IMG/VR virus record: IMGVR_UViG_3300040751_002535
DNA length: 64,000 bases
Reading direction: 5' to 3' (one strand)
Source: a virus
Shown here one piece after another: positions 1-27,361 of this stretch. The notes under the pieces are model-generated. The model had not been told where the DNA came from, ran no database searches, and was given only the letters and a program-made list of their open reading frames with translations. The position numbers and the translations under genes are program-made. Positions within the stretch are counted from its first letter, which is position 1. The number at the start of each line of letters is the position of its first letter.

Positions 1-153
1 AGACACACTTGGTGTGGTAAAACATACAATCCTGAGAAAGTAAGCTACTGGGATCTTCCTTGGGAGATCGAAGCACACGGACGAGAAACTGGATTGTTTG
101 TACGCTGGGCAGAAAAAGAACGTGTTGCTCACTTAAAATGGACACAACTATAG
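1..153 (+). CDS. partial CDS (3' end), putative phage zincin-like metallopeptidase C-terminus
   Basis: Frame 1 reads ...KVSYWDLPWEIEAHGRE...KWTQL* ; YxxxPWEIEA is typical of the tail of phage HExxH-type proteins; 5' part lies outside the window. Confidence 0.45.
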   Translation, partial: RHTWCGKTYNPEKVSYWDLPWEIEAHGRETGLFVRWAEKERVAHLKWTQL

Positions 154-154
154 G

Positions 155-182
155 TTGACGTTAAATCAAAATACACTATATT
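155..182 (+). promoter_or_regulatory. sigma70-like promoter for the R-M pair
   Basis: TTGACG (155-160), 16 nt, TATATT (177-182). Confidence 0.6.
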
Positions 183-211
183 AATACTAAGGCAAAACAG
201 AAAGGTACCAC

Positions 212-718
212 ATGTCACAACGTGTAAACAACTTTAAAGGCGGCATCCAATCAGGTACAACTGCATTAGATGCAGATAGTTCCAAACTTGATAAACAACT
301 TAAAGAATCTAGAGATAATATTCGAGTACCTGATCTTAAGATGATCAAACAGTTTTCTTATGAAGATAAAATAAAATATGTTGGCGACAACTGTTTTGGA
401 TTTGCACCAGATGGCGGCGCATGGTTCAAAGGCGACAAACTAGTAGCAGTATTTGAAGCCAAGAAACAAGGACTTGGCGGCAATGCATACGAACGTTGGT
501 GGGACAATGCTTGTACAGCAAAACATATTAATCCAGATGTAGTATATGTAACATTTTGCAGCGGCCCGGGCTCTGCACAAGGACAATGTTTAGATAATCT
601 CCGGCGCAAAGCAAACATTATGTTAGGCGAAAACTTCAAGTTTTATATGTCACCCGAAGGCTTTACATTTGATCAAGTTAGTGCTATAATGCAAGAAACA
701 TTGGAAGGAACGTTATGA
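212..718 (+). CDS. EcoRI/MunI-like type II restriction endonuclease (PD-(D/E)XK), compact
   Basis: PDGG...FEAKKQG...GNAYER matches EcoRI PDGG...AEAKHQG...GNAIER; ATGA overlap with the MTase gene. Confidence 0.75.
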   Translation: MSQRVNNFKGGIQSGTTALDADSSKLDKQLKESRDNIRVPDLKMIKQFSYEDKIKYVGDNCFGFAPDGGAWFKGDKLVAVFEAKKQGLGGNAYERWWDNACTAKHINPDVVYVTFCSGPGSAQGQCLDNLRRKANIMLGENFKFYMSPEGFTFDQVSAIMQETLEGTL

Positions 719-1653
719 AACCATTATACATGTGGGCAGGCGGAAAAAACAAAATGATACCCAAATATTTGGATAACCCAGGTATTCCAACTAGTGGCTA
801 CGACACATTTGTTGAGCCATTTTTTGGTGGCGGAGCAATGACTATTTGGGTATATGAAAACTGTCCGGATGTAAAAAGGTTTGTTATCAATGATGTTAAA
901 GAAGAACTAGTTGGTATTTACAACGCTATTAAAAATGATGTTGATAACTTTATTAAACGTATGGATGCACTCGAAGCACAATATATTCCTTTAGATAAAG
1001 CCAAACGCAAAGAATGGTTTTACAATCTTCGTACACCATATGCAACCAATGTACACAACTGGACTACTACAGAAGAAAGTGCTACACTTTACTTCCTAAT
1101 GAAAACAGCATTTAATGGTATTTGGCAAACTACCAAACGTGCAAATGGTAGATTTGATACACCATTTGGATTAGGTAATCAAAAGACAACAGTGTATGAC
1201 AAAGAAAATGTAATAGAATGGCATACATTTTTACAGAAAGTAGATGTTTATTGTGGAGACTGGAAAGTGGCAAGCGATGCAGTAGCAGGCGAACGTGCGT
1301 TTTTCTTTTATGATCCGCCATATAGAGATAGCTTTACAAGTTATGGTGAAGGATTTACAGATGCAGATCATCAAACTTTAATCGAGTATTGTGTACAAAA
1401 AGATCTACAAGGCGATATTGTATTTTATTGTAATAGAGATGATGCACAAGACGGATTCTTTGATACACACAAAGCACATTTGAACGATAGTTACTTTGAT
1501 ATAAAATATACAGCTGGACGTAGAGCTACTGAAAAAGACGAAGATGGCAACGACACTCGTACAGCAAAAGCAGCCAAAGAGATACTATTGCATTCAACAA
1601 TAGTAAAATCTGCTGATGTATTTGCCAATGGATTATGTGAAGTAGTTGGTTGA
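715..1653 (+). CDS. N6-adenine DNA methyltransferase, Dam/D12 (alpha) family
   Basis: WAGGK, EPFFGGG (motif I), IND, FNG...F.TPFG hairpin, DPPY (motif IV). Confidence 0.92.
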   Translation: MKPLYMWAGGKNKMIPKYLDNPGIPTSGYDTFVEPFFGGGAMTIWVYENCPDVKRFVINDVKEELVGIYNAIKNDVDNFIKRMDALEAQYIPLDKAKRKEWFYNLRTPYATNVHNWTTTEESATLYFLMKTAFNGIWQTTKRANGRFDTPFGLGNQKTTVYDKENVIEWHTFLQKVDVYCGDWKVASDAVAGERAFFFYDPPYRDSFTSYGEGFTDADHQTLIEYCVQKDLQGDIVFYCNRDDAQDGFFDTHKAHLNDSYFDIKYTAGRRATEKDEDGNDTRTAKAAKEILLHSTIVKSADVFANGLCEVVG

Positions 1654-1678
1654 CAAGTGTGTGCCTGTATGCTATAAA
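1650..1678 (+). promoter_or_regulatory. sigma70-like early promoter
   Basis: TTGACA, 17 nt, TATAAA with TGn extension. Confidence 0.7.
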
Positions 1679-1710
1679 AGTGTATAGGCACAAACACACA
1701 GAGGCACACC

Positions 1711-2457
1711 ATGTTCGCAGAAGTTAAAAACGGATACGTACACAAGGACGCAGTTCCAATGAAAACTGTTAAACTTACAGAAGCACTTGCTGTCGCATAT
1801 GCAGCTTACCGTATCAACAACAACACTTATACCAAAGACACTCGTCGCTTTAGCTGTGACGAAAACAAGACACAGTTTGACAACAAGAGTCTTGTGCGTT
1901 ACTATTGGGAAAAGAAGCTGGATACCGCAGACGCAAAGTATCTTCCTACAGACTTTGAAATGTTCGAACCTACTGAAGAAGACTATGCAAGTGTGCAAGA
2001 AGCACTCAAGTGGATGAAACGTTATGTGATGCTTGGACTAGGCGAGCTAGACAGCTTCAAAGCAGACATGGTAAAAGAACTGTCGCAAGATGAAGTGCCA
2101 TTCAAAGGCATGGGTCGTATTGCTTTTGCTCCAGAGTTTATTGCTCGCGATCAACACGAAAGCAATCTTAAGAAAGAGATCCGTGTAGAGTATCGCGACA
2201 GCAAACATCTAGGTGCAGAGAAAGATAGTGTAGAAGCAGTGATTGCTATCCTTGACAAGCGTTACAGCGCACAGTGGGAGAGCTACAACTACACTGCGGT
2301 TACTACAGAAGGTAACCTAGTGAGCTTTATGAACAAGTTTGCATACGATGTAGGTGCTATGCTACGTTGTAAGGCTAAGGTAAAAGCACAGACTAAGAAC
2401 AAGTTGTTCGAAGCAAACGAAACTCGTCTAAACTATGTAAGACTCTATAAGGTATAA
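1711..2457 (+). CDS. hypothetical phage protein, possible C-terminal OB-fold
   Basis: 248-aa ORF with GAGG RBS; beta-rich C-terminus ending ETRLNYV. Confidence 0.6.
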   Translation: MFAEVKNGYVHKDAVPMKTVKLTEALAVAYAAYRINNNTYTKDTRRFSCDENKTQFDNKSLVRYYWEKKLDTADAKYLPTDFEMFEPTEEDYASVQEALKWMKRYVMLGLGELDSFKADMVKELSQDEVPFKGMGRIAFAPEFIARDQHESNLKKEIRVEYRDSKHLGAEKDSVEAVIAILDKRYSAQWESYNYTAVTTEGNLVSFMNKFAYDVGAMLRCKAKVKAQTKNKLFEANETRLNYVRLYKV

Positions 2458-2478
2458 AAATATGAAGGACGATTACTA

Positions 2479-2691
2479 ATGGATTTTTTTACAGCGGCAC
2501 ACGGTATTCTATTACTAACAGCAGTGGTTTTTACTGTATTCGGTGCCTACGTTGGTCGTAGATCTCAAACAGAAGAGATTGTAGAAGCTACACTTGATAG
2601 CTTGATCGAAGATGGTTATATTAAAACAGAAGGCCGCGGTGCCAACATGGAAATCATTAGATGGCAAGAATGGTGCAACAAAAATGATTAA
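2479..2691 (+). CDS. small membrane protein
   Basis: N-terminal hydrophobic helix; AAGGA RBS. Confidence 0.6.
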   Translation: MDFFTAAHGILLLTAVVFTVFGAYVGRRSQTEEIVEATLDSLIEDGYIKTEGRGANMEIIRWQEWCNKND

Positions 2692-3280
2692 ACTGCAAGG
2701 TAAACTTCCTCGTAGGGTGTATCTAGCCTGTAGTGGTGGTGTTGACAGCATGGCTGCACTAGACTTTCTAAGACGCAATCACGATGTACATGTACTACAT
2801 TTTGATCACGGAACCGAACATGGTCGACAAGCAAAGGAGTTTGTAGAACAATACTGTATGCGTAGAGGTATTCCTATTACCACAGGCGAAATACATGGTA
2901 CAGTACCTCCGGGTCCTAGCAGAGAAGAATGGTGGAGAGAACAGCGTTATGCTTTCCTCGACAAGTTTTCTGGAAACACCATTATTACTTGTCATCACTT
3001 GGATGATTGTGTGGAAACTTGGGTGTGGAGCAGTATGCATGGCACAGGCAAATGGATCCCGTATCGTCGAAACTATGTAGTACGACCGTTTCGTCTCACT
3101 CGCAAAAGAGATTTAGAAATGTGGTGTCGTTTAAACAATGTACCGTGGATTGAGGATGACAGTAATGAAGATATCCATTATACTCGTAACTATATTCGAC
3201 ATGAAATGATGCCAAACGTATTAAGAGTTAATCCAGGTATTCATAAAACTATTGCAAAAAAGGTTAAGGAAGATGAGTAA
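2684..3280 (+). CDS. tilS: tRNA(Ile)-lysidine synthetase-like PP-loop ATPase (catalytic domain only)
   Basis: ACSGGVDSM PP-loop, HFDHG, RY, HHLDD..ET, D.SN...Y.RN.IRH; start refined to ATG 2684. Confidence 0.85.
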   Translation: MIKLQGKLPRRVYLACSGGVDSMAALDFLRRNHDVHVLHFDHGTEHGRQAKEFVEQYCMRRGIPITTGEIHGTVPPGPSREEWWREQRYAFLDKFSGNTIITCHHLDDCVETWVWSSMHGTGKWIPYRRNYVVRPFRLTRKRDLEMWCRLNNVPWIEDDSNEDIHYTRNYIRHEMMPNVLRVNPGIHKTIAKKVKEDE

Positions 3281-3283
3281 AAG

Positions 3284-3490
3284 TTGTGGAGAAGAAGCGT
3301 GTACGCAGTAATGGTATGTCTTGACGGCAAAGATGATTGGATTTATGTTACGAAACAAACAGAGCATTGCTGGGACTTACAGCCCGAACTGTTTGAAGAT
3401 GCACATGAAGCAATGGAGTTTGCACAAAGATTTCAACTCCCAGATAAACCTGAAAACGTAATGGTGGTAGATTATTATGAAGATCCATAA
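3284..3490 (+). CDS. hypothetical protein
   Basis: ORF within the gene string; true start may be GTG 3299. Confidence 0.5.
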   Translation: MWRRSVYAVMVCLDGKDDWIYVTKQTEHCWDLQPELFEDAHEAMEFAQRFQLPDKPENVMVVDYYEDP

Positions 3491-3506
3491 GGTTATCGCA
3501 AACGAG

Positions 3507-3512
3507 TAAATA
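3507..3512 (+). promoter_or_regulatory. T4-like late promoter core (TAAATA)
   Basis: Intergenic TAAATA upstream of GGGAG RBS and ATG 3539. Confidence 0.5.
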
Positions 3513-3538
3513 CAAGTCATAACATAGGGAGTACTAAT

Positions 3539-3748
3539 ATGGCACGACATGACTATATGGGCTTTTCAGAAACGCTCGAAGAAGACGACTATGGACTTAT
3601 TATAGACAAGAATGGAAATATAAAAGGCATCTGGGTGCCAAAACATTTGGAAGATGTAGAACAGCTTCCTTCAAGTATTGTACATGCTTGTAAACTTTAT
3701 TTTGATGTTGACCCAAATGACGAAAGCAACTATCAAACATTACATTAG
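3539..3748 (+). CDS. hypothetical acidic protein
   Basis: GGGAG RBS, 69 aa. Confidence 0.6.
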   Translation: MARHDYMGFSETLEEDDYGLIIDKNGNIKGIWVPKHLEDVEQLPSSIVHACKLYFDVDPNDESNYQTLH

Positions 3749-3756
3749 AGGTTTTA

Positions 3757-3996
3757 ATGACACCACAAGAAATAGCTGAATACAAACAGCGTTGGATGAG
3801 CACAGGAAATACCAATCCTGTGCGACTTCACAGTGACTTGGATACACAAGGTAAAACTTGGTGTAGAAGGAACTTGGAGAGACATCAATGGAGCATGACA
3901 ACATGGACAGATGTTTACGAACATACTTTCTTTTTTGAAAGCAAAGAACATGCATTACAGTTCGAACAACAATGGCCAAGATTTATCAATCAATAG
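3757..3996 (+). CDS. hypothetical protein
   Basis: GAGG RBS, 79 aa. Confidence 0.65.
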   Translation: MTPQEIAEYKQRWMSTGNTNPVRLHSDLDTQGKTWCRRNLERHQWSMTTWTDVYEHTFFFESKEHALQFEQQWPRFINQ

Positions 3997-4025
3997 TTGA
4001 CAAATATAAAAATAAAAGTTATAAT
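3997..4025 (+). promoter_or_regulatory. consensus sigma70 promoter
   Basis: Perfect TTGACA, 17 nt, TATAAT. Confidence 0.85.
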
Positions 4026-4054
4026 GATTAGTAATAACAAGGAGTGCATTCCAT

Positions 4055-4342
4055 ATGGAAGAAAACTTAACTAAGACAGAAGCAGTCGGTAGATTAATCA
4101 GCTTGGCCAAAGAAGTTGAGATTAGAGATCCTATTGACTGGAAGAGAATGAAGGTAACCGAAGAGCAAGTATTTGAAGTAATGGCAGCAAATGTCATTGA
4201 TCAACTTTTTAGTATACCAGAAGACCATCGAACAACAGTAGCAATGGCTACTATGACAAAGTTACTTGTAGAAAACTTTGTATTATCAACTAAACTAGCA
4301 GAAGAAAGAGAAAAAAATGCCATTAGTACCAATCGTAGTTGA
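4055..4342 (+). CDS. hypothetical protein
   Basis: AAGGAG RBS, 95 aa, predicted helical. Confidence 0.65.
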
Positions 4343-4934
4343 ATCAGAAGCAAAAGGCGAACGTTCATACGACATTTACAGCCGTTTGATGAAAGACCGT
4401 ATTATTATGTTAAACGGTGTAGTAGAAGACAACATGGCTAACTTGATTGTAGCACAGATGTTGTATCTTGAAAGCGTTAATCCTGACAAAGACATTAACT
4501 TGTATATCAACTCGCCGGGCGGTGCCGTAACAGCAGGACTTGCTATTTACGACACTATGCAGTTTATCAAATGTGATGTGCGTACTATTGTAATGGGTCA
4601 GGCATGTAGTATGGGTAGTTTCCTTGCACAAGCAGGTACAGCAGGAAAACGTACTGTACTGCCAGAGTCACGCACAATGATCCATAGAGTGTCAAGTGGC
4701 ACACGAGGAACCAGCGGAAGTGTACACGTACAAGAACTACAGTTTGAAGATGCAAAACGAGCATACGAAGAGTCGCAAAAGATCAACAAGCGCCTTACAG
4801 AGCTTTATGTTAAGCATAACACCGCCGGTAAGCAGTACGACGAACTATTTGAAACTATGAAGTTTGATACATTCCTTACAGCACAAGAAGCTGTTGAACA
4901 CGGACTTGCTGATAAGGTAGTTGAGCATAGATGA
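4317..4934 (+). CDS. clpP: ATP-dependent Clp protease proteolytic subunit
   Basis: [25 protein letters not shown] (catalytic Ser), MIH (His), DTFLTA (Asp). Confidence 0.95.
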
Positions 4935-5554
4935 AGTTTAGCTGTCCAATAGATTTTCATTTACCAACACAGAAGTTGCATGATATCTATTGGAATGAGT
5001 TTGGATACAAGCTCGATGACAGAACACTTTACAAAGACGACAAAAGAATAATGCCAGTGGTTACAGGATTTTTAATCACTGGCAAAGACATCAAATGGCC
5101 AGTGCAATCATTGTTGGATGCTCTTGATATTGAGTTACAAACTGCTAGACTATTTGTAACCAATCCACACTGTAAGTTACAGATACACAAAGATTGTTTA
5201 GCTCAATCAAAAGAACTTCGTTCGTGGGCTATTAATATTCCTATTGCAAACTGCGACTTGGGTATAAATGAATGGTTTGAAGATCACAACAACGACTTTG
5301 GTACAGAGCAGTTTGCACCAGGCGGCAGTTCTATAATGCCAGAATACTTTGACAACAACTACATTGTAAGTGAGTCAATGGTGTTAAATAGCATACAACT
5401 GATTAAAACAGATGTATTTCACAGAAGCAACAACACAGGCAATGATAACCGTAGAGTTGTTTTAAGTTTAAGAGGAAAGCCCGATGTAACTTGGGCAGAT
5501 ATATTGGAGAAAGTAAATGTCTACAACAGAAGACGTGCAGAAGACAATAGCTGA
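4931..5554 (+). CDS. 2OG-Fe(II) oxygenase/cupin-like protein
   Basis: IHKD...AINIP...FH...R.VLSLR double-stranded beta-helix pattern. Confidence 0.55.
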
Positions 5555-5867
5555 TTTAAAAGGTGTGCCCACACGTCAAGAACTACTTGACCTATTAGGT
5601 GACGAAATAGTAAATGTAACATTTGACAAACTCAGCGGCGATGAGCGTACTATGAAGTGTACACTTATACCCAGCATGTTACCAGCAGCACAGCGTGAAG
5701 ACAAACTAAGTCAAACTAAGATACGCAACTTGGAAGACAAGGTGTTTGTGGTATGGGCTATAGATATTGAGCCTAATGCTTGGCGTAGCTTCCGTTATGA
5801 CAGGGTTAAAAAGGTTGAAGTTGATTTTCTGTTTGGCAACGGAACCGAGGATGGAGCAAACTACTAA
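5517..5867 (+). CDS. WYL_2/Sm-like SH3 beta-barrel protein
   Basis: VTFDK.SGDERTMKCTL...WRSFR motif. Confidence 0.7.
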   Translation: MSTTEDVQKTIADLKGVPTRQELLDLLGDEIVNVTFDKLSGDERTMKCTLIPSMLPAAQREDKLSQTKIRNLEDKVFVVWAIDIEPNAWRSFRYDRVKKVEVDFLFGNGTEDGANY

Positions 5868-6403
5868 TGTTAAATCCTGTAAAACTTGACTACGACTTTG
5901 ACGTATTTTTAAATGCCGACTACAGTGTACACGAAGGCAGTTGTATTGCACACCAAGTACATGAGCTACAGGATGTTCACGAAGAACACGGTGGCTTTCC
6001 AGACAGTTACGAACGCAGCAACACATTGATTAGACAGTTGTGGTTTGACGAAACGCAAGTGGACTACAAAGAGTTTGAACGCCAGTTGGGCATTGAAGTT
6101 GTAACAGTTAGCACAGTACTACAACCACCCGGTAATGTTATTCCTATTCACAGAGATACATTCTTCCAAATCAACAAACGTTATCCGGATGATACACGTT
6201 TAAAGGTTCGTGCTAATATGTACTTGCAAGATTGGAAAGTTGGACATCTTATACAATATCAAGAGCATGATAAAACTTGGCACAACAGCACACATTGGAG
6301 TGCAGGAGATGGATATATTTGGGATCACAACCATTTGCATCTAAGTGCCAATGCTGGAATGGCTGACAAATACACTCTACAAATCTCAGGTTTTTTAAAA
6401 TAA
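5867..6403 (+). CDS. 2OG-Fe(II) oxygenase/cupin-like protein
   Basis: PGNVIPIHRD...W.AGD...HLSANAG...YTLQISG. Confidence 0.6.
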   Translation: MLNPVKLDYDFDVFLNADYSVHEGSCIAHQVHELQDVHEEHGGFPDSYERSNTLIRQLWFDETQVDYKEFERQLGIEVVTVSTVLQPPGNVIPIHRDTFFQINKRYPDDTRLKVRANMYLQDWKVGHLIQYQEHDKTWHNSTHWSAGDGYIWDHNHLHLSANAGMADKYTLQISGFLK

Positions 6404-6407
6404 TAGG

Positions 6408-6443
6408 TTGACATCTTATTAAGAGTAATGTATATTATAAATA
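6408..6443 (+). promoter_or_regulatory. overlapping sigma70 and T4-like late promoter
   Basis: TTGACA, 17 nt, TATATT (6431-6436), plus TATAAATA (6436-6443). Confidence 0.7.
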
Positions 6444-6468
6444 TAGGCACACAGAGAAAGGCACTATC

Positions 6469-6969
6469 ATGAAAAACTTATTACTTGCTACAACTATTGC
6501 TATTGTAACTTCATCTGCTGCGGTAGCTGATGTTGTAAGAGCACGTATTACACATGTTGAACCACGCTACGAAACAGTTTACAATAATGTACCCACAACA
6601 CAATGTCAAGACGTTGAAGTTCCGGTTTATGGACGCACAGGCGGCGGTGCTACAGGTGGTGATGTACTAGGTGGTATGATCATTGGTGGATTGCTTGGCA
6701 AAGGTGCTACTGGTAAGGATGATGGCGCAGCTATTGGCGCTATTCTCGGAGGTATGGTAGCAGCTGACAACAACAACGGTCGAAGAGTTATCACAGGATA
6801 TCAGATTCAACGTCAGTGCAACGAAGTGTATGAAACACGTCAAGTACGCCAGATAAAAAACTATCTTATTAGGTTTGAATGGAACGGCCATTACGGACAA
6901 GCATACACATACAACAACTATCGTGTAGGTGATCGTATTGATGCAACTGTTAGTGTAACAGCAAACTAA
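6469..6969 (+). CDS. exported glycine-zipper 2TM protein (YcfJ-like)
   Basis: Signal peptide; GxxxG zipper LGGMIIGGLLG...GAAIGAILGG flanked by a Cys pair. Confidence 0.75.
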   Translation: MKNLLLATTIAIVTSSAAVADVVRARITHVEPRYETVYNNVPTTQCQDVEVPVYGRTGGGATGGDVLGGMIIGGLLGKGATGKDDGAAIGAILGGMVAADNNNGRRVITGYQIQRQCNEVYETRQVRQIKNYLIRFEWNGHYGQAYTYNNYRVGDRIDATVSVTAN

Positions 6970-7181
6970 TGAGTAGTTTTAAAATAGATGAAATGCTGGA
7001 GTTGTTGTACAAGATTGACAGTCGCTTGGATATCATTGAAAAATATCTTCACTTTGAAGATGAAGAAGTTGCAAGTATTCTAGATGAACTTATACAAGAA
7101 GAGCAAGACAACATAAACTCTAAACCAAAACTTGTTATTGTTGAGAATGATAAGATTGTAGAGTTTCCAACGAACGACTAA
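6969..7181 (+). CDS. hypothetical acidic protein
   Basis: TAATG translational coupling, 70 aa. Confidence 0.55.
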   Translation: MSSFKIDEMLELLYKIDSRLDIIEKYLHFEDEEVASILDELIQEEQDNINSKPKLVIVENDKIVEFPTND

Positions 7182-7932
7182 GACAGTTACGTTTGTTGTT
7201 GTCTAGCCCAAAAAGAACACAGTCGCTCTGAGTTAGATTGTGTTCTTCACAAAGTTTTATTTGATTGATCCTATATTTTTGAAATATCCAATCACTTGTA
7301 AACTTGTTCATTAGGTCAAGATGTAAAAGCATACTTGAATGATTTAGATAAAAATGTTTGTTTGTGACACTTGCAGGTGATGAATATGGCTCAGTTGTAT
7401 ACACAACTCCACATCTTATATGTCCTGTGTTGAATGCTTTGCTAAAACTAAATGCTACATGAGTAATGCAAGAATGTGTTAGATCAAGTTTACCCAAACT
7501 CACACCTGCTAAACAAGCATCAACAAATACATCTATACCCCATTTTATACAATGCTGGATAATATCATTCCAATCTTTGTGCGGATTACCTGTGGCAGCA
7601 AATGGATAGCTTATGATAAGTCTACTACCAAACGGAATATCTTTGTAGTTGGATATTGGAATACCAATATCCTTATGATAACTGTATTCTCCGTTTAGCA
7701 CATAACACCGTTCTCTATACACTTCGTTGAATGCTTCAGTTACACCAGCAGTTACATAACCGTATTTGAATGAGTCTAGACCAACTAATCTAAATGTGGT
7801 ATTTTTAATCCATTCTCGATGCTGTTTTACAAAAACTTGCGGCGCATATATTTTATTTAGATGTATCTCTCTAGCATTAATAAACTCTTTGATTGAGTTA
7901 TCATGTATAGGTATTGCTTTACTACTAAACAT
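7135..7932 (-). CDS. PLP-dependent transferase-like protein (fold type I)
   Basis: GVTEAF, ISYPF...GN, VDAC, FSFSKAF...RCG (Schiff-base Lys motif). Confidence 0.65.
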   Translation of the reverse strand: MFSSKAIPIHDNSIKEFINAREIHLNKIYAPQVFVKQHREWIKNTTFRLVGLDSFKYGYVTAGVTEAFNEVYRERCYVLNGEYSYHKDIGIPISNYKDIPFGSRLIISYPFAATGNPHKDWNDIIQHCIKWGIDVFVDACLAGVSLGKLDLTHSCITHVAFSFSKAFNTGHIRCGVVYTTEPYSSPASVTNKHFYLNHSSMLLHLDLMNKFTSDWIFQKYRINQIKLCEEHNLTQSDCVLFGLDNNKRNCLSRSLETLQSYHSQQ

Positions 7933-8632
7933 CTACCACCTGCGCTTTGAAAAAGTTAAAGAACCCTGTGAGTGTTAATCTTACATTCTCACCAGCATCC
8001 TTGTCTACCCTAGTTATACCATGTACTACGTTCTTGTTTATCAACACAAGTCTATTGGGTTTGGGTGCTACAAAATAGCCCATGCCGTGTTCAATCAACC
8101 CTTTTTGTTTTTCTGCTTGCTCAAACATTTCCAATGTGCCTGTATTACGATACGTATCTTGTTGTTTAGTACCTGGTAACTTGCGCATGATTTGTTTGTA
8201 TTCTACACTGTCTTTGGGTAACACCAACAACATACTGTCCCAGTTGATTTGCCAATGTTTGTGCAAGTAATAACTGTAAGTTACCCCGCCCATATCTGTA
8301 TGCCACGGATTTTTACTGCCTACAGGGTAACCATGACATCGCATAGCAATGTCTGTGTAGCCTGCTGTATAATCTTGAGCTTCTTCGCTGTCTGCAAATG
8401 TCTTTATAGCATCTGCCCATATGTCGTAGTTGTCGTTAAATGGCGCATCTCGGAGAAAGCGTTTGCTGGCTTTGTAGTTTGCACCATCGGTAATATGCCA
8501 ATATTTGTCGTCAGTCTGACTCTGTGTCCATTCGTCACACTGCACTTGATTGAACAATCTATCCCAACTCTCTTGTGGCAAGAAATCATCTACCACAAGC
8601 ACTTCGGGTGTTTTCATTACAACTTTATACAT
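7925..8632 (-). CDS. 2OG-Fe(II) oxygenase (prolyl-hydroxylase-like)
   Basis: VVDDFLP, WHTD, PKPNRLV, VHGITRV, R.TLTGF. Confidence 0.8.
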   Translation of the reverse strand: MYKVVMKTPEVLVVDDFLPQESWDRLFNQVQCDEWTQSQTDDKYWHITDGANYKASKRFLRDAPFNDNYDIWADAIKTFADSEEAQDYTAGYTDIAMRCHGYPVGSKNPWHTDMGGVTYSYYLHKHWQINWDSMLLVLPKDSVEYKQIMRKLPGTKQQDTYRNTGTLEMFEQAEKQKGLIEHGMGYFVAPKPNRLVLINKNVVHGITRVDKDAGENVRLTLTGFFNFFKAQVVDV

Positions 8633-9623: not shown

Positions 9624-9628
9624 AATAT

Positions 9629-9634: not shown

Positions 9635-9655
9635 CAAAAAACTTGCATTCAGCGG

Positions 9656-9833: not shown

Positions 9834-9846
9834 TAATAACAAACAT

Positions 9847-19411: not shown

Positions 19412-20612
19412 TACATATTGCGTATACCCGTTTATAAACGTACACACTAACACCGATGGTAGATGTAAACTATGCTGCCATGTGTACAGTGAAGACTATA
19501 TTCAAGTAGATGGCAAAGATGCTGTACTAGGTAAAACTGACTGGTGGAACATTTGGAACGGGCAATACATGCTGGATGTTCGTGCAAAGATGCTGGCCGG
19601 TGGCAAAGTTAAAGAATGCAATCGCTGCTACGAACACGAAGAAAAAGGTTTAGAAAGCAGCAGACAATGGGCCAACAAAACATATCGTGCATCTGTAACA
19701 CACGGCAACCCTACACACTTAGAACTACGATTGGGCAACCATTGTAACCTAAAATGCAATAGTTGTTGGAGTGTGAGCAGTGATCAGATTTACAAAGAAC
19801 GTAAGAAGATACTTGCTAAAGAGTCTGTACCTAAGTGGTTAGATGACCAATGGCAACACGAGATTAAAAGTGTAGAGGAACACGATTGGGCATGGTACGA
19901 GACTCAGGAGTTTCGTGACTTTGTAGATCAAGTTGCACCTACATTAGAACGACTGTACATGACAGGTGGTGAGCCTACACTGATACAAGCAAATCAGTAT
20001 GTATTGGACAAACTAGTAGAAGCTGGTAATACAAAATGTCATGTAGCATGGACAACCAATATGACTACATGGCCAGAAGGGTTTTATGACAAACTAGATT
20101 TTTTTGACACTAGTGAAATACAGATGAGCATCGACGGTTATGGTGATCATAACATGTACATACGCTATCCAACTGATTGGAACAAGGTAGAAGAAAACTT
20201 TGACAAAGCAATGCGGTTGCCTGAAAAAGTACAACTAAAGATTTACTTTGTGTATCAAGCATGGAATGTGTTTGATGTTGACAAACTAATACGTTGGCTA
20301 GAACAAAAGCAAACAAGGCGTGTGGACTTTGTTCCTATTTTCTTAGAACATCCTGATCAACTGCACAGTTGTGTATGGCCTAGAGAACTACAGCATAATA
20401 TCATTGGAAAACTAATGATGCTGGATACAAAGCTACACCAAGATGCTGTTCAAAGAATCATTAACTACACACAGAATACTAATAAATATTCAGCAGAGAA
20501 CCTCATGAGAATGAAACAGTTCATTAGTATCAATGATAGATATCGCAAGTATAAGTTTGCAGATATTTTTCCATTACTAAATGACATATTGGAAACAGAA
20601 TGCAAGAAATAA
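19404..20612 (+). CDS. radical SAM protein with N-terminal Twitch/SPASM domain
   Basis: YCVYPF...LCC...CNRC, CNLKCNSC, GGEP; GTG start after AGGAG. Confidence 0.9.
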   Translation: MSNTYCVYPFINVHTNTDGRCKLCCHVYSEDYIQVDGKDAVLGKTDWWNIWNGQYMLDVRAKMLAGGKVKECNRCYEHEEKGLESSRQWANKTYRASVTHGNPTHLELRLGNHCNLKCNSCWSVSSDQIYKERKKILAKESVPKWLDDQWQHEIKSVEEHDWAWYETQEFRDFVDQVAPTLERLYMTGGEPTLIQANQYVLDKLVEAGNTKCHVAWTTNMTTWPEGFYDKLDFFDTSEIQMSIDGYGDHNMYIRYPTDWNKVEENFDKAMRLPEKVQLKIYFVYQAWNVFDVDKLIRWLEQKQTRRVDFVPIFLEHPDQLHSCVWPRELQHNIIGKLMMLDTKLHQDAVQRIINYTQNTNKYSAENLMRMKQFISINDRYRKYKFADIFPLLNDILETECKK

Positions 20613-21592
20613 AAGCTATTTTACCAGCTAAAGACAAATGGGTAAGCCTAGTATGGCAAGTCAACGATTGGTGCAACTTTCGTTGTACATATTGCAGCGA
20701 ATGGAACTGGGCAGGACGTAATAAAAACGATACAGATATTCCGTTGATTGTTGATACACTTGAGCGTATTATGTTACATTATAAAGCCAAAGGTTACAAG
20801 TATTTTAAACTGTATCTCAGCGGAGGCGAACCTACATTTTGGAAGGCACTTATTCCTGTTGTAGAAAAGTTTAGAGAACATGCAGAATGGCCTGGCAGTT
20901 GTGTAGGTATCAACACCAACTTTAGTAAGCCACTAAGCTGGTGGAAGGATCATCATCACTTGTTTGAAGATGTTGTTGCTAGTTATCATGCAGAATGGAG
21001 CAAAGACGACAAGTACATGGATGTTTACAAGTTCTTACAAGATAAGAAAAACTATTTGTGTAGTCGTATTATGATGCATCACGATCATTTTGAACAGTGT
21101 ATGGCATTTGGCGACAGAATAAAAAATGAGTGTGACAACTATATGATTGAGTATGCACCAGTCTATGACGAGTTACGTCCTAGCACAGATCCGTATCATT
21201 ATGACGAACCGTGGCAGATGGAGTTTTTTCAAACTAATAGTACAGTACAACAGCAGAGTATTCCTATAAAAAAAGATCCTAGTTATGCTTGGGCAAAAGT
21301 ACAATACGAAGATGATACTATAGAACCTATTGATACAAACGGCATCATTACAAACGGTAAAAACTTCTTTAAAGGTTGGTTGTGCAATATACACGAAAGT
21401 TTGCACATTCATCCTAATGGTAAAATACAACAAGCAAGTTGTGGAGTAGGACCAGTTGTTGGAAATATTGTACAAGGCGAGTTTAATACTACAATGAGTG
21501 AAGGAGTGTGGTGTCCTAAATCACATTGTCATTGTGCAGCAGACTTTAATATTAGTAAAGCAAGGCCAGAATATGCAAAACAAATTAGATAA
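20600..21592 (+). CDS. radical SAM protein with C-terminal SPASM-like domain
   Basis: CNFRCTYC, GGEP, C-terminal C...C...CP...CHC. Confidence 0.9.
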   Translation: MQEIKAILPAKDKWVSLVWQVNDWCNFRCTYCSEWNWAGRNKNDTDIPLIVDTLERIMLHYKAKGYKYFKLYLSGGEPTFWKALIPVVEKFREHAEWPGSCVGINTNFSKPLSWWKDHHHLFEDVVASYHAEWSKDDKYMDVYKFLQDKKNYLCSRIMMHHDHFEQCMAFGDRIKNECDNYMIEYAPVYDELRPSTDPYHYDEPWQMEFFQTNSTVQQQSIPIKKDPSYAWAKVQYEDDTIEPIDTNGIITNGKNFFKGWLCNIHESLHIHPNGKIQQASCGVGPVVGNIVQGEFNTTMSEGVWCPKSHCHCAADFNISKARPEYAKQIR

Positions 21593-22910
21593 ACTACCAA
21601 AAAACTTTTGTTACTTTAGTATGCAAGGATACAGCACACATTCGCATGGACGTACTAGACCATGTTGTTTTAGTAGAGTAGAAACTAATGCATACATGCC
21701 AGGTGTTGATGTAGATTCAGTTCCTTATTGGAAGGAACATCATAACTGGAATAGTCCTGATCTTGAAGATTTTATCAACGATCCAAAAGCCAAAGAAATA
21801 CGCAAGCAACTACTAAATGACGAAGTTCCAGACGGATGTCGTAGTTGTTTCGAACTTGAAGATCAAGGCATACGCAGTTTTAGACAAACATGGAATGAAA
21901 TATACGAAGATCAAATAGACACAACTTTAAAGCATGTTGATAATGAAGGACATTTAGATGCACAGGCTGTTACGTACTTGGATATCAGTTTGGGAAATAT
22001 TTGTAACCTAAAGTGTAGAAGTTGCAATCCGTGGGCAAGTCATCGATGGATAGAAGAAGGACCTACAGTGCCACACACTGATTGGGATGACACAGCATAT
22101 ATGATTGCCAAAATGAGCAGTGACAAGCCTTGGTTTATTAAAGCATTTGCTGAAGGATTTTTTGATGAAGTACTGCCTAATGTAAAAGTTATTAACTTTA
22201 TTGGTGGCGAACCGTTAGTGGTTGAAGAACATTATGCTTGGTTAGAACACATAGTAGACCAAGGTTGGAGTAAGGATATTGAGCTCCATTATAATACTAA
22301 TGGTACAACTATACCCGATAGACTATTAGCTATCTGGGATAAGTTTAAAGGTGTTATATTAAGTTTGAGTATAGATGCTATAGGTGATCTTGCATACTAT
22401 GTTAGACATCCTACCAAATGGAAAATAATAGAAAAGAATACAAAAAAACTAGCAGAGTTTAGTCGCACACGCAAAGGTGTTCTTGTGCATACACACGTTA
22501 CACTTAGTTTGCTAAACTTGCATGACTTGCCCAACTTGTTGGATTGGTGCAAACACCAATATGATACGTGGCACTATGAATGGGATTGGGGCAACTATGG
22601 TTATCAAAACTGTCTGCCGCATTTTAACATTGTAGATTTTCCACGTCACTTGAATATACGAAACTTACCCGAAGATCGCAAAGTGTTGATGAACAAAATG
22701 TTGGAAGAGCAACATCTCAAATACAAAAATGCCAAGTTGCCGGATTGGGAGCAGTGGGCAGTTGAAAACATTATCAACTTAAAAAATATTCTAAATCAGC
22801 CACAAGATGAAACAGACTGGAAACACTTTATTGATAATACCAATGCTAGTGACAAGTTTAGAAAACTCGACATTGTTGAATATATTCCGTGGATGGAGAA
22901 ATATTTTTGA
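21573..22910 (+). CDS. radical SAM protein with N-terminal Twitch/SPASM domain
   Basis: FCYF...PCC...CRSC, CNLKCRSC, GGEP, TNGT. Confidence 0.9.
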   Translation: MQNKLDKLPKNFCYFSMQGYSTHSHGRTRPCCFSRVETNAYMPGVDVDSVPYWKEHHNWNSPDLEDFINDPKAKEIRKQLLNDEVPDGCRSCFELEDQGIRSFRQTWNEIYEDQIDTTLKHVDNEGHLDAQAVTYLDISLGNICNLKCRSCNPWASHRWIEEGPTVPHTDWDDTAYMIAKMSSDKPWFIKAFAEGFFDEVLPNVKVINFIGGEPLVVEEHYAWLEHIVDQGWSKDIELHYNTNGTTIPDRLLAIWDKFKGVILSLSIDAIGDLAYYVRHPTKWKIIEKNTKKLAEFSRTRKGVLVHTHVTLSLLNLHDLPNLLDWCKHQYDTWHYEWDWGNYGYQNCLPHFNIVDFPRHLNIRNLPEDRKVLMNKMLEEQHLKYKNAKLPDWEQWAVENIINLKNILNQPQDETDWKHFIDNTNASDKFRKLDIVEYIPWMEKYF

Positions 22911-23497
22911 AACTAGTAAGTTTTGGCGATGAACTAACTATAACTAAAAATAACCATGTTGACTTGTTGGCAAAGCAACTGGGCATGTCTGTGGTGAACA
23001 AAGGACTGGAAGATACCAGCAATGAAAGAATATTCAACGATGTTGTAAAGTTTATATGTGAAAACAACACAAGTGAATATTTTTTTTTAATAGGCTGGAC
23101 ATCGCAGGCAAGGCAAGATATATTCTGGAAGGATGAATACTTTACGTATCGTCCTGACAAACGTGTGTACAATGATAACACTATTAATGGAATGCACAGA
23201 GGAGATGAAATATTATTCAATCCTATATTAAATTCTGGACAATGGGCTACTATGGCATTGTCCTTACAACAAACATTTGAGTTTCATGATTGTAAATATT
23301 TTATGTACAATACACAAGATTGTATTCATATTAGTGATTACAATGCAAAAAATATTAAAAGTTTAAAAACAACAAACTATCATAATCCGTTGAATAAAAG
23401 CAGTAGTATGAAATACTATTTAGAACAACAAAGTTTACAATCGCACACTTGGGCAGATTTTCTTTATCGTAAAATAAATGCAGGAGGTGTGCTTTGA
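22907..23497 (+). CDS. SGNH/GDSL-like protein, degenerate catalytic site
   Basis: FGDELT in place of FGxS.T, SN.RI, IGWT; no clear catalytic Ser. Confidence 0.5.
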   Translation: MKLVSFGDELTITKNNHVDLLAKQLGMSVVNKGLEDTSNERIFNDVVKFICENNTSEYFFLIGWTSQARQDIFWKDEYFTYRPDKRVYNDNTINGMHRGDEILFNPILNSGQWATMALSLQQTFEFHDCKYFMYNTQDCIHISDYNAKNIKSLKTTNYHNPLNKSSSMKYYLEQQSLQSHTWADFLYRKINAGGVL

Positions 23498-24225
23498 AAT
23501 ATCTAGTTGCATTTGGATGTAGTCATACCAATGGCAGCATGTTAGACGGAAAAAACAGTGCCAGTGAATACAATGTGCGCAACGGGTTTCCAGCTATGCT
23601 TGCAAAGCGTCATGGATATGAGCTGATTAATATAAGCAAACCCGGTGGCAGCAATCAACACATATTTCGTACAGTATTAGACTTTGTAAATAATCATATG
23701 GAAGACCAATATGATTATTTGTTTTTAATAAACTGGTCGGGTGCTAATAGAATAGAACTACGCTATCCTGAAAAGAATGATCTACACAACTATGTACATT
23801 ATGGAGATCATCTTGACTTTAAAAGTGTTCCATTTACTGTAGGTATTAAACCTAGTATCTATACATATAAACCTATTGTGCATTTAATCAAATACATTCC
23901 TTATTTGTTTGATGACAATATGATGTTTGATAAATGGGCAACTTATGCTTACAGTTTGCAATGTATTCTAAAGAAAAATAATATACAATATCTAATGAGC
24001 AACACATGTGAAGGACTAAAATCAACAGAATACAATGCTAATGTTATAAACAAGTTGGATACATTACACTATCCACATATCAGCAGCGAAAAAGATGCAA
24101 TGGTTACATGGTTGTTGAATCAAGGTGTTAAAAAAACACCTTGTTGGCATTTTAGAGAAGATGGACATGCATTGTGGGCAGATAGATTAGAAACATATCT
24201 CAAGGAGCTAGGGTATGTTGAATAG
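23494..24225 (+). CDS. SGNH/GDSL hydrolase/acyltransferase-like protein
   Basis: AFGCSHT, GGSN, WHF...GH..WA. Confidence 0.7.
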   Translation: MKYLVAFGCSHTNGSMLDGKNSASEYNVRNGFPAMLAKRHGYELINISKPGGSNQHIFRTVLDFVNNHMEDQYDYLFLINWSGANRIELRYPEKNDLHNYVHYGDHLDFKSVPFTVGIKPSIYTYKPIVHLIKYIPYLFDDNMMFDKWATYAYSLQCILKKNNIQYLMSNTCEGLKSTEYNANVINKLDTLHYPHISSEKDAMVTWLLNQGVKKTPCWHFREDGHALWADRLETYLKELGYVE

Positions 24226-25204
24226 AAATATAGTAAGCAAAAACTTTAGATATCGTAGTAATGAGTTTAACTTTCGATTGGGCTTTCCTGAAGAAAAAAC
24301 TGTAAAAATAGGATCATTATACACTCGTATTGATTATTGGAAAAATGTTTACTTCAATCTCTTAAAACTCAAACCATTTGATAATATAATGTTCTATATG
24401 AATCAAAGTGGATTTGATACATTTGCAATGATATTGGCTGCTACCGAACTTGATTTAAACATAGTTTCATCAAATCCTGATTTACTAATACACACACTTC
24501 CTGATACAACACTAGATACCAAAGGATTTAATAAGCATCGAAACTATAGTTATCATGATTTGTCAGATCATAAGTTTGACAGTGTTGTAGAATATACACA
24601 AACAGGAACTTCAACAATACTAGGTAAGACAAAAATACCAACAATAACTATACACGGAAATGTTCTGCACACAAAATATGATATTCAACCTGAGCTAATT
24701 ATAGACTTTATGCTGCCGGCATTGATGAATGATGCTGTTGAAACACACACCTGCCTAGGATTCAATGATGTCGTCGAAGGTATGCATCGGATATTAAAAG
24801 TTGTGCAAATGCAAGGCATCAACTGTGTTCTTGTGCCATCTATTGAAACTTGCTATAGTTTTGTTGAAGTAGCATTGTTAAAAAGTATTAACATTAATAA
24901 CTTGCGCATCAACTGTTGGGACAATGGCCTTATAACACCTGTTGTTAATCCTGAAACTATCAACTACAACGATCTCGATGACTTGCCCAGTAAATATCGC
25001 ATCAAAGGAAAAATATTAAGAGATGTCACCGAAGATAAAATATATTTTCAGTTTGTAAAGCCTGTTGATAAAAGTATAGCCAAAATAAAAGTTTCTGCTA
25101 TGAATGCCGAAGTCAAACGTAGAACAGGAAAAAAAATAAGCAAGTGGGCATATGCACAAGGGCCCGATGACGAAACATTAATTTTGTTTAGGAATCTAGA
25201 ATGA
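24215..25204 (+). CDS. hypothetical protein (possibly a degenerate adenylate-forming enzyme)
   Basis: 329-aa coupled ORF; only a weak Thr/Gly-rich loop (YTQTGTST) suggests the ANL fold. Confidence 0.4.
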   Translation: MLNRNIVSKNFRYRSNEFNFRLGFPEEKTVKIGSLYTRIDYWKNVYFNLLKLKPFDNIMFYMNQSGFDTFAMILAATELDLNIVSSNPDLLIHTLPDTTLDTKGFNKHRNYSYHDLSDHKFDSVVEYTQTGTSTILGKTKIPTITIHGNVLHTKYDIQPELIIDFMLPALMNDAVETHTCLGFNDVVEGMHRILKVVQMQGINCVLVPSIETCYSFVEVALLKSININNLRINCWDNGLITPVVNPETINYNDLDDLPSKYRIKGKILRDVTEDKIYFQFVKPVDKSIAKIKVSAMNAEVKRRTGKKISKWAYAQGPDDETLILFRNLE

Positions 25205-26004
25205 TTAAAATAATCTACAATGACGGATGTAGTTTAGGTGCCGGCGCAGAACACAAGAGTTGGGAAATGTTGCCCGAAGGTGAGGAAATCTGTGATAGTA
25301 CTTGGACAGATATTATTAAAACCAAATATTACCCAAATGCTAAAAAAATAACCAAAGCCACAACTGGCTCAAGCAATCGAGGCATACGCAGACGAACTAT
25401 ACACAATGTACTAGAACTATTAGAAACATACAAATCTGATGAAATACTAGTGTTTATAATGTGGACTAGTTTTTATAGACGAGAGTTTTTATTATCTAAT
25501 CCTAAACTTGACAGAGGAAATAAGTATTTTACACTATTACCCAGTGACACTGCTAGAGGATTAAAATCTCCTACAGGAAAACTAGTAAACAGTGACGAAC
25601 GTAGAACTATATTAAAAGACAATCATTTAGATATAATTGCTGATGAAATCTATACACATCATAACAAGCCTCTAAATCACTTATATGAATCATTAGCAGA
25701 TGTTGAAGCAACTAATATGTTTTTAAAGTTGCATAGTATAAGAAGTGTACAATGTTTTGGATTTGGATCTGATGTCAACCCTAATCTAGTATTAGATTTA
25801 GATGACGTATACACAAACTCAATAGTTAAACGAGTATTAAAATATAATATATATTATATTCCTACTTCACCTCCTCAAGGATTTTATGAGTACTCTGTTG
25901 GACAGCATTTCGAACTTGGCCCTGGTTTACATCCTTTGGAATCAGCACATAGAGCTTGGGCTAATATTATTCCAAGACATTTTAGGTTGACACCTGAAAA
26001 GTAG
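25201..26004 (+). CDS. SGNH/GDSL hydrolase/acyltransferase-like protein
   Basis: NDGCSLG, GSSN..I, MWT...R.E, LHP...AH..WA. Confidence 0.7.
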   Translation: MIKIIYNDGCSLGAGAEHKSWEMLPEGEEICDSTWTDIIKTKYYPNAKKITKATTGSSNRGIRRRTIHNVLELLETYKSDEILVFIMWTSFYRREFLLSNPKLDRGNKYFTLLPSDTARGLKSPTGKLVNSDERRTILKDNHLDIIADEIYTHHNKPLNHLYESLADVEATNMFLKLHSIRSVQCFGFGSDVNPNLVLDLDDVYTNSIVKRVLKYNIYYIPTSPPQGFYEYSVGQHFELGPGLHPLESAHRAWANIIPRHFRLTPEK

Positions 26005-26015
26005 TATGCTATATT
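25987..26015 (+). promoter_or_regulatory. sigma70-like promoter
   Basis: TTGACA, 17 nt, TATATT with TGn. Confidence 0.75.
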
Positions 26016-26041
26016 GGTAATATAAACAAGAGGGCAATGTT

Positions 26042-27361
26042 ATGAGAACACAACCACAAGATGTAATCAAAAAACTTGAAGCAGACAACAGTCGCCTTGC
26101 TAAAGAAGCAGTATTGCTAGAAGCAATGGAAGAAGGACTAGACGAGTTCTTTGAAGGTGTACGCATGGCACTCGATGCTCTTGTTACTTTTGGTGTTAAG
26201 CAAGTACCTGAGCGTTCAGACATACTAACCGGACAAGGTCTTTCGTGGCCAGTGTTCAAAGAGCTTGCTGACAAACTTGCTAATCGTGAACTAACAGGAC
26301 ATGCGGCACGTGATGCTATTGAACTTGCAATGGGCATTGCTACCACAGAACAGTGGAATGGGTTTTATCGTCGTATCTTAATCAAAGATTTACGATGCGG
26401 AATGAGCGAAAAGACTGTTAACAAAGTTGCTAAACAGTTTCCACAATATGCTGTTCCTGTATTTACTTGCGCTCTTGCTCATGATAGTGCCAAGCACGAA
26501 AAGAAGATGACTGGTGTAAAGCAGATTGAAATCAAACTGGATGGCGTGCGTGTTATCACAATCATTCGTGGCAACAAAGTAGAAATGTTTAGTCGTAACG
26601 GAAAACAGTTTCACAACTTTGGACATATTATCAAAGAACTGGAAACAGTACTAAAAACTAATCCTGCACCTTATGACTTGATGTTGGATGGAGAAGTAAT
26701 GAGTGCTAACTTCCAAGACCTTATGAAGCAAGTACATCGCAAGGAAAGTGTAGAAGCAAACGATGCTGTATTGCATTTGTTTGACTTAGCACCTCTAGCA
26801 GATTTTCAAAACGGTGGCTGGACAAAACCACAAGCATTTAGAAGTGCCGCAGTTAAAGCATGGGTAAACCAGCATACAGATATCTTACAGCACGTTACAG
26901 CGTTGGATTGGGAAGAAGTTAACCTAGACACACCAAAAGGTGAAGCTCGCTTTGTAGAGCTTAATAAGGCGGCTGTAGACGGGGGATACGAAGGTGTAAT
27001 GATCAAAGACGTTGATGCACCATATGAATGTAAGCGTACACACGCTTGGCTCAAAGCCAAGCCTTTTATTGAAGTAACATTGGAGGTAGTAGATGTCGAA
27101 GAAGGAACAGGACGAAACAAAGGACGCCTTGGAGCGTTGGTATGCGCTGGAGAAGACGATGGACGAATGGTCCAAGTCAACTGCGGAAGTGGGTTTAGTG
27201 ACGCTAATCGTGATGATTTTTGGAATAGCCGTAGCAGTCTTATTGGCCAGCTTGTAGAAGTAAGAGCAGACGCTCTTACACAAAATCAAGACGGCACATA
27301 CAGTTTGCGCTTCCCACGCTTTAAAACATTCCGTGGATTCGAAGTCGGCGAAAAATTATGA
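26042..27361 (+). CDS. lig: ATP-dependent DNA ligase
   Basis: KLDGVR, DGEV, FD, EGVMIK, WLKAK, SLRFPRF. Confidence 0.95.
   Translation: MRTQPQDVIKKLEADNSRLAKEAVLLEAMEEGLDEFFEGVRMALDALVTFGVKQVPERSDILTGQGLSWPVFKELADKLANRELTGHAARDAIELAMGIATTEQWNGFYRRILIKDLRCGMSEKTVNKVAKQFPQYAVPVFTCALAHDSAKHEKKMTGVKQIEIKLDGVRVITIIRGNKVEMFSRNGKQFHNFGHIIKELETVLKTNPAPYDLMLDGEVMSANFQDLMKQVHRKESVEANDAVLHLFDLAPLADFQNGGWTKPQAFRSAAVKAWVNQHTDILQHVTALDWEEVNLDTPKGEARFVELNKAAVDGGYEGVMIKDVDAPYECKRTHAWLKAKPFIEVTLEVVDVEEGTGRNKGRLGALVCAGEDDGRMVQVNCGSGFSDANRDDFWNSRSSLIGQLVEVRADALTQNQDGTYSLRFPRFKTFRGFEVGEKL

Follow-up and report, generated by a model that had tools for sequence, protein, structure and literature searches.

The DNA analysed here, the window, is a 64-kb stretch of the IMG/VR virus record IMGVR_UViG_3300040751_002535, with 38% G+C and 80 called open reading frames (ORFs) covering 95% of its length. 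Near its start lie two co-oriented genes on the forward strand that overlap by 4 nt, a nuclease ORF at 212–718, which we call R, and a methylase ORF at 715–1653, which we call M. By family profile, structural model and motifs, R encodes a 168-aa minimal EcoRI-fold PD-(D/E)XK nuclease, a probable AATT-specific endonuclease. M encodes a 312-aa D12/Dam-family N6-adenine DNA methyltransferase (PF02086, E = 1e-32), probably the cognate AATT methylase. The pair sits within a tract of near-total AATT avoidance, assigned to no strand, that spans positions 1–27,350; it is followed by a tract of moderate avoidance, likewise unstranded, that spans 27,351–64,000 and represents the baseline level of the genome. 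Below, a locus with R is termed R+, and O/E denotes the ratio of observed to expected AATT.

We quantified the avoidance against three null models: base composition, a maximal-order Markov model over all 256 tetramers, and 300 synonymous-codon shuffles within each gene. By exact count the window holds 93 AATT, 13 in its first 27,350 positions and 80 in the remainder. The 13 sites occur at exactly the coordinates listed in a preliminary description of this DNA (9722 to 25635), and there are none in 1–9,721. Base composition predicts 248 sites in 1–27,350, the Markov model 161, and the codon shuffle 204 ± 10. The near-total avoidance claimed in that description is an outlier under both of the latter: the Markov O/E is 0.081 (z = −15.7), the lowest of 256 tetramers, with the next lowest at z = −5.5, and the codon-shuffle O/E is 0.064 (z = −19.3), the minimum over 300 shuffles being 177 sites. 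The density of AATT is 0.48 per kb, versus 9.2 per kb in nuclease-free relatives.

The depletion is specific to this word. Tetramers of the same composition are normal in 1–27,350 (Markov O/E of 1.03 for TTAA, 1.00 for ATAT and 0.85 for TATA), and GATC is not depleted (Markov O/E 0.89; the shuffle is also normal), as the description had said; its broader statement that other palindromes are spared needs correction, because CGCG (0.35), AGCT (0.67) and CATG (0.73) are mildly low. Across the whole window, only CGCG is markedly low besides AATT (15 versus 44 expected), and the G/C-containing palindromes that are purged in cyanophages are normal. Position 27,350, which had been given as the end of the avoidance, is a change in degree: the avoidance continues through 27,351–64,000 with an O/E of 0.345 (Markov, z = −13.7) or 0.283 (shuffle, z = −17.8), and AATT is still the lowest tetramer there. 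In this second tract, GGCG is also about two-fold over-represented (124 versus 57 expected, z = +10.9).

AATT has been removed from the genes of 1–27,361 almost entirely through synonymous, context-dependent codon choice. Before a T-initial codon, Asn is encoded by AAT once and by AAC 91 times; elsewhere, the counts are 261 and 160. Lys, Glu and Gln before TTN use NAA 6 times and NAG 83 times, compared to 1048 and 289 elsewhere, and Ile after an A-ending codon is ATT, ATC and ATA 4, 27 and 68 times, compared to 209, 67 and 138 elsewhere. The switch in codon choice that had been noticed by eye is thus seen for Asn, Lys/Glu/Gln and Ile codons, and so is the double constraint on certain survivors. 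Two of the 13 remaining sites, at 10124 and 10139, lie in the anticodon stem of a forward-strand tRNA-Asn(GTT) at 10099–10174; one lies slightly upstream of the tRNA cluster; and one, at 21583–21586 (forward strand), lies in the 95-nt overlap of the radical-SAM ORFs 20600–21592 and 21498–22910, where both reading frames constrain it.

The sequence context of the lost sites defines the avoided word. All ten NAATTN flank classes are depleted, with densities between 0.08 and 0.34 of those in nuclease-free relatives, which indicates that the avoided word is the 4-bp core. For the same reason, the 6-bp targets GAATTC, CAATTG and RAATTY were rejected. There is no preferential loss of AAATTT-type contexts.

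We now turn to the proteins encoded by the pair. R matches no Pfam or NCBIfam family; its relatives are unannotated proteins, each of about 170 aa, that make up a large family of 120 clusters. Across 43 homologues, the invariant or near-invariant residues are P66-D67-G68-G69, E82, K84, Q86 and G90-N91-A92-x-E94-R95-W96; P66 is kept in at least 90% of them, and R itself possesses all 18 invariant family residues. When a profile of 43 family members was compared with the PDB, EcoRI was the only meaningful match (E = 0.03), with the PDGG, EAK.QG and GNAIER..KN motifs aligned and about 20 EcoRI residues between EAK.QG and GNAIER lacking a counterpart. In this alignment, the catalytic residues P66-D67, E82 and K84 correspond to the PD..EAK of EcoRI, and G90 N91 A92 x E94 R95 correspond to its GNAIER recognition segment. 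Crystallography has established that EcoRI and MunI read the inner AATT with the GNAxER segment. An AlphaFold2 model of R (pLDDT, the predicted local distance difference test score, is 88) gave EcoRI structures as its five best Foldseek matches, with MunI at rank 13, and VIA-align superposed the model on EcoRI with Z = 11.5 and a root-mean-square deviation of 2.8 Å over 140 of 168 residues at 21% identity (Z = 7.5 for MunI). A phmmer search with R alone against PDB sequences returned chance matches only. From these profile and model comparisons, R is most likely an AATT-specific endonuclease; given the loss of all NAATTN classes, its predicted site is the bare 4-mer.

A scan of 185,579 prokaryote species, one genome each, by pattern and tblastn, with a pre-filter requiring the conserved motifs, found a single R homologue, located on a 3-kb contig of a metagenome-assembled genome (MAG). 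Consequently, no host source is visible, and by its distribution the R family looks phage-specific. Upstream of R, by 30 nt, lies a sigma-70-like promoter match on the forward strand (TTGACG-16-TATATT, 155–182; 10 of 12 matches), which is weak evidence for a promoter. A second promoter-like match (TTTACA-17-TATAAT with a TG, 662–690, forward strand; 11 of 12 matches) lies inside R, 25 nt upstream of the start of M, and might hint, as weak evidence, at independent expression of M. Shuffled sequences contain matches of this kind at least as often.

M scores 145 bits against TIGR00571 (cutoff 114.85) and contains the DPPY motif; it scores 54 bits against the Dam equivalog NF008152, far under the cutoff of 441. 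When M is aligned to DpnM and E. coli Dam, Met replaces the Lys before WxGGK and Gln replaces the Arg of NGL.R; in E. coli Dam, these positions are K9 and R124, with which the enzyme reads the G:C pairs of GATC. Judged by these replacements, M has most likely been re-tuned away from GATC and would methylate and protect AATT. A hydrophobic residue and Gln occupy the two positions in 66 of the 69 R-linked methylases with both motifs readable. The R-linked clade has a target-recognition signature of its own, NG[IV][WYF]Q; the target-recognition regions differ in the other D12 methylases that these genomes encode and in the Dam of phage S-PM2. Among 90 R+ loci, a methylase of this clade directly follows R in 65, follows after an inserted gene of 0.9–1.4 kb in 13, and is absent from the locus in 10. 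The 13 interrupted loci include that of S-RIM2 (SWTG_00031, L009:20635–21690), whose inserted gene has a weak DUF6551 match; the insertion is possibly a mobile element that has come between the two genes.

To place the window among its relatives, we drew genome-wide statistics for the window phage from the near-identical IMG/VR fragments G047, G049 and G001, and the genome size implied by CheckV completeness is about 350 kb. By clamp loader, its closest cultured relatives are the Pseudomonas jumbo phage PA5oct (56%) and the Agrobacterium phage Atu_ph07 (46%); megablast of 16 kb of the window against cultured phages gave no match. A 381,886-bp contig, L331 (IMGVR_UViG_3300043399_000877), is a distant relative with 52% identity on ORF 28715–29914; it has no AATT depletion (O/E 0.96), and the jumbo-phage group of the window might use it as a near-complete reference genome. 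Loci for comparison were collected with anchor genes, among them the clamp loader of the window (80 IMG/VR loci at 87–100% identity, 76 of them at 87–94%) and the helicase that adjoins the R-M (restriction-modification) pair in S-RIM2 (80 cyanomyophage loci). AATT statistics on R+ loci refer to those of at least 8 kb (n = 49).

Among these 49 R+ loci, the median O/E is 0.32; 78% have an O/E under 0.5, and in 31 no tetramer ranks lower than AATT. The relatives of the window without the 212–1653 locus are not AATT-poor, which is the comparison on which the preliminary description had made the role of the pair depend. The 80 clamp-loader loci have a median O/E of 0.94, as do the 76 contigs at 87–94% identity taken separately, and the only depleted members are the two 100%-identical contigs and two others, L112 (0.28) and L103 (0.63). 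When ORF 28715–29914 is used as the anchor, a depleted sub-clade has O/E between 0.16 and 0.39, and undepleted relatives at 83% identity or less have O/E between 0.82 and 1.08. Orthologous segments contain 18 AATT in relative G004 (2.55 kb, 72% identity) and 11 in relative G013 (1.27 kb, 66%), compared to none in the window. G013 (96 kb, O/E 0.96) is informative at the slot itself: between the flanking genes, where the window has the R-M pair, it has a 264-aa ORF (L179:692–1486, reverse strand) whose N-terminus is GIY-YIG-like and which contains a long tandem repeat of the KEKIAEYQKQY type. By gene content, the slot behaves as a hotspot for mobile nuclease genes. R was not found in the records of 40 relatives, which are 7–32% complete fragments and informative only where a contig spans the slot; a 67-bp match in G022 was non-syntenic and uninformative. 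Among about 140 R-free loci of at least 8 kb, O/E is 0.5 or lower only in L093 (the window phage itself), L112 and L221, fragments that may have R off-contig.

The same association is found in cyanophages. Across 50,697 phage records, R occurs only in S-RIM2 as SWTG_00030, in S-BM1 as SBM1_00185, and in one further Synechococcus phage record. Of the phages of Synechococcus WH7803, those with R are depleted (S-RIM2, O/E 0.27; S-BM1, 0.25) and those without R are not (S-PM2, 0.98; S-RIM8, 0.86); Syn9, isolated on Synechococcus WH 8012 and without R, has an O/E of 0.97. At the helicase anchor, 4 R+ loci have O/E between 0 and 0.13, and 65 loci without R have a median of 0.85 and a range of 0.50–1.16, with no overlap (Mann–Whitney p = 9e-4). 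Complete or large genomes extend the range. G042 (190 kb, complete), where R and a cognate-type M are 18 kb apart, has 186 AATT versus 1155 expected (O/E 0.16, z = −39), evenly along the genome; G046 (194 kb), with an adjacent R-M pair, has an O/E of 0.69. G050 (111,864 bp, 63% complete, 46% G+C) has 0 AATT versus 339 expected (z = −23). Its R is intact and is followed by a 2-oxoglutarate (2OG) oxygenase gene; no D12, N6_N4 or EcoRI-type methylase was found on this 112-kb contig.

Other words are scarce in some of these genomes. CCGG, GGCC and AGCT are depleted in S-RIM2, S-BM1, S-PM2, S-RIM8 and Syn9 whether or not R is present, and this depletion looks host-driven. CCGG occurs 0 times versus 30 expected in S-RIM2, 29 in S-BM1, 21 in S-PM2, 145 in G042 and 154 in G050, with GGCC and AGCT strongly low. 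Syn9 is poor in GAAC and GTTC (31 of 201 and 13 of 163 expected), and S-RIM8 in GATC (14 of 103). The TARA scaffold L001, which spans 20.5 kb around an R-M pair, lacks CATG entirely (0 versus 69 expected, z = −10.6) and contains 45 AATT versus 118 expected, which suggests a second, separate site purge.

We consider it likely that R cuts unmethylated AATT, that M covers what remains, that methylation is unreliable during rapid replication and so drives the purge, and that R strikes AATT-rich foreign DNA. The phage would encode its own Type II-like restriction system at 212–1653, and its replicating DNA would be exposed to R in every infection, so that each AATT would become a liability. Selection would then strip AATT almost wholly through synonymous codon choice, and M would cover the few sites left. 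This would leave R to cut foreign DNA rich in AATT, whether that of the host chromosome or of co-infecting phages without the system; R-free relatives, with about 9 AATT per kb, would be highly sensitive to it. The depletion with its codon basis, the fold and motifs of R, the conserved linkage of R and M, and the close tie between R and AATT scarcity across several unrelated phage lineages are shown here; cleavage and methylation of AATT, and what R attacks in nature, we infer.

The main competing explanation is that a host enzyme of the MluCI/Tsp509I type cuts AATT and drives the avoidance, and that the phage captured the pair and retains it mostly for the protection given by the methylase. 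In lytic phages, palindrome loss is classically attributed to avoidance of host Type II sites (PMC6286503), and the low CCGG, GGCC and AGCT of cyanophages regardless of R fit host enzymes. However, S-PM2 and S-RIM8 are undepleted though from the same host strain as S-RIM2, and so are the relatives of the window with clamp loaders 87–94% identical to its own; together, these close relatives and same-host phages favour the phage's own nuclease over a host enzyme, and support the tie between avoidance and the 212–1653 pair that the preliminary description had proposed. The association also holds both for a jumbo phage lineage and for cyanomyophages, whose hosts differ, and it persists in G050, which keeps R and zero sites with no methylase detected in 112 kb. 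This recurrence in unrelated phage groups, and its persistence without a methylase, point to R, and neither to a host enzyme nor to the methylase, as the source of the selection. Finally, R has no cellular homologues among the 185,579 species save the one match on the short MAG contig. We therefore regard a host enzyme as an unlikely driver.

Several observations weigh against selection by the phage's own nuclease. The purge is much stronger in 1–27 kb than elsewhere, which this explanation leaves unaccounted for, and some R+ loci are weakly depleted (O/E 0.7–0.86), as is the G046 genome at 0.69. Most of the relatives called R-free are fragments 7–32% complete, so that the absence of R is direct only in the G013 slot and in the cultured cyanophages. 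On the protein side, the Pfam EcoRI and MunI models do not match R even at E = 10, NCBIfam gives no match, and the family profile match to EcoRI is marginal. If M protected the DNA fully, the need for avoidance would be non-obvious, and the proposal requires incomplete methylation in rapid replication. Lastly, the association gives no direction, and an AATT-poor genome could simply tolerate gaining R.

This last point can be developed into an explanation with the order of events reversed, in which AATT was lost first for another reason and an AATT-cutting nuclease was then gained and kept as a weapon. Association alone cannot order the events, and the variable slot, filled by a GIY-YIG-like gene in a relative, implies that the pair behaves as a mobile cassette. 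However, O/E is continuous among R+ genomes (0.69, 0.3, 0.16, 0), as expected of a purge under way after acquisition, and the R-free loci at or below 0.5 are all fragments, with no further case among the roughly 140. We judge this order of events improbable. Less probable again is that the methylase is the liability, its N6-methyladenine (m6A) in AATT attracting methyl-dependent host nucleases (Type IV or DpnI-like) so that carriers of M lose the sites. M does accompany R in most depleted genomes, but the most complete purge is that of G050, where R is intact and no methylase is detectable in 112 kb, and S-PM2 and Syn9 have other D12 methylases without R and are undepleted. A cause unrelated to any nuclease, such as DNA structure (AnTn-type bending, a narrow minor groove), mutational bias, or a host protein or small molecule that binds the minor groove, is the least credible of all: AATT does have a distinctive minor-groove geometry, but neither structure nor mutation would follow a single gene family from lineage to lineage, contexts of the AAATTT type show no preferential loss and TTAA, ATAT and TATA are normal, and no depleted lineage demonstrably without R and without an AATT-specific host enzyme has been seen so far.

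The two levels of purge within the window merit separate consideration. A single change point in AATT density is best placed near 24.6–27.3 kb, with an O/E of 0.06–0.08 over the 27 kb downstream of the R-M pair and about 0.3 over the rest of the window. A symmetric gradient caused by linkage to the cassette was rejected, because the 57 kb upstream of the pair in G047, a 96%-identical strain, have an O/E of 0.33, not near zero. Recent import into the window strain was likewise rejected as the source of the weaker purge in 27–64 kb: identity to R-free relatives is even there (75–85%) with no high-identity tracts, and the depleted relatives L300 and L302 share the same left/right asymmetry (3 and 7 sites versus 17 and 19), so the contrast is not a recent import. 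The strongly purged tract contains accessory genes and is more diverged from relatives (66–72% versus 75–85% nucleotide identity). Candidate causes of its stronger purge are a faster synonymous rate or less re-seeding by recombination with abundant R-free relatives. Many survivors in 44–64 kb are at the same position in relatives (for example, 35 of 45 and 25 of 35), which fits ancestral sites awaiting removal.

The nuclease-driven purge suggests an extension that we offer more tentatively, as somewhat less than an even prospect. The absence of AATT may itself be the marker of self: after gain of the cassette, O/E would fall from 0.7 through 0.3 and 0.16 to 0, after which the methylase could be discarded, leaving a solitary R that would shred the DNA of hosts or rival phages, without modification-based immunity. 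In co-infections, the cassette may also act as a drive, in which R would cut AATT in R-free relatives and, with the purged genome as the repair template, the cassette and AATT-free alleles would both spread. Such a drive could account for the near-total purge of the adjacent 27 kb.

Within the most strongly purged tract, radical-SAM/SPASM enzymes are arranged in tandem at 13644–22910, one with a B12-binding domain, and an ATP-dependent DNA ligase (26042–27361) lies in the downstream flank of this run. At 9744–9931, ARAGORN calls a 90-nt tRNA-Ser (anticodon ACT) and an 85-nt tRNA-Trp(CCA), both unusual.

The nearest characterised enzymes are EcoRI (Type IIP, G^AATTC; PDB 1ERI, 1CKQ, 2OXV) and MunI (C^AATTG; PDB 1D02), which have the PD-(D/E)XK alpha-class fold in common with R. 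R differs in size (168 aa versus 277 aa for EcoRI), with about 90 EcoRI residues lacking a counterpart, including the stretch between EAKHQGK and GNAIER. Its predicted site is a bare 4-mer, whereas EcoRI and MunI read 6-bp sites, and its partner is a Dam-family methylase, whereas that of EcoRI is of the M.EcoRI type. The R family is found in phages only, save the one MAG match.

The avoidance also has precedents. Gelfand and Koonin reportedly described, in 1997, the avoidance by bacteria of the sites of their own R-M systems. Bacteria avoid these sites (Rusinov et al. 2015, PMC4687349), and phages avoid host R-M sites (Rusinov et al. 2018, PMC6286503). As in those cases, a short palindrome is lost through selection against occasional cleavage, to a degree that varies with residence time. 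Here, however, the avoider is a lytic phage, the candidate enzyme is its own and not its host's, and in some lineages (G050) avoidance is complete and the methylase has been lost.

Chloroviruses (e.g. CviAI/M.CviAI) and clade A marseilleviruses also encode R-M pairs (PMC7253447). The chlorovirus restriction endonuclease (REase) degrades host DNA, and a role in competition was proposed in marseilleviruses (PMC7253447). Like the window phage, judged by its genes, these viruses carry an adjacent REase and m6A methylase. Unlike it, they are giant viruses of eukaryotes with GATC and other specificities that protect themselves by methylation, and a genome-wide purge is not reported in PMC7253447. 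The carriers of pairs like that of the window are bacteriophages, and their nuclease belongs to a different, EcoRI-like family from the REases of chloroviruses and marseilleviruses. Phage T4 degrades host DNA with EndoII and EndoIV, and hydroxymethylcytosine protects its own DNA. In both phages, nucleases would be deployed against unmodified DNA to which the phage's own DNA is immune; the immunity of T4 is chemical, a modified base, whereas that of the window phage would be informational, the absence of a 4-letter word, supplemented by methylation, and the degradation of host DNA by R is a prediction. A literature search found no report of AATT avoidance or of the R family in cyanophages or other phages.

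If the proposed activities hold, this would be a clear case of a bacteriophage with an offensive restriction enzyme whose self-protection consists mainly in the loss of the recognition word from its own DNA. Self would be distinguished from non-self without base modification, which may explain how T4-like phages whose cytosine is ordinary could break down host DNA or keep out competitors. The R family is widespread and phage-only; by sequence, its members would be the smallest known enzymes of the EcoRI fold and probable 4-bp cutters of practical interest. The genomes that carry it form a graded natural series, from weak depletion to zero sites and from a linked methylase to none, for the rate of genome-wide codon rewriting. 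These predictions can be tested directly in culture on Synechococcus WH7803, where S-RIM2 and S-BM1 are available as members and S-PM2 and S-RIM8 as controls.

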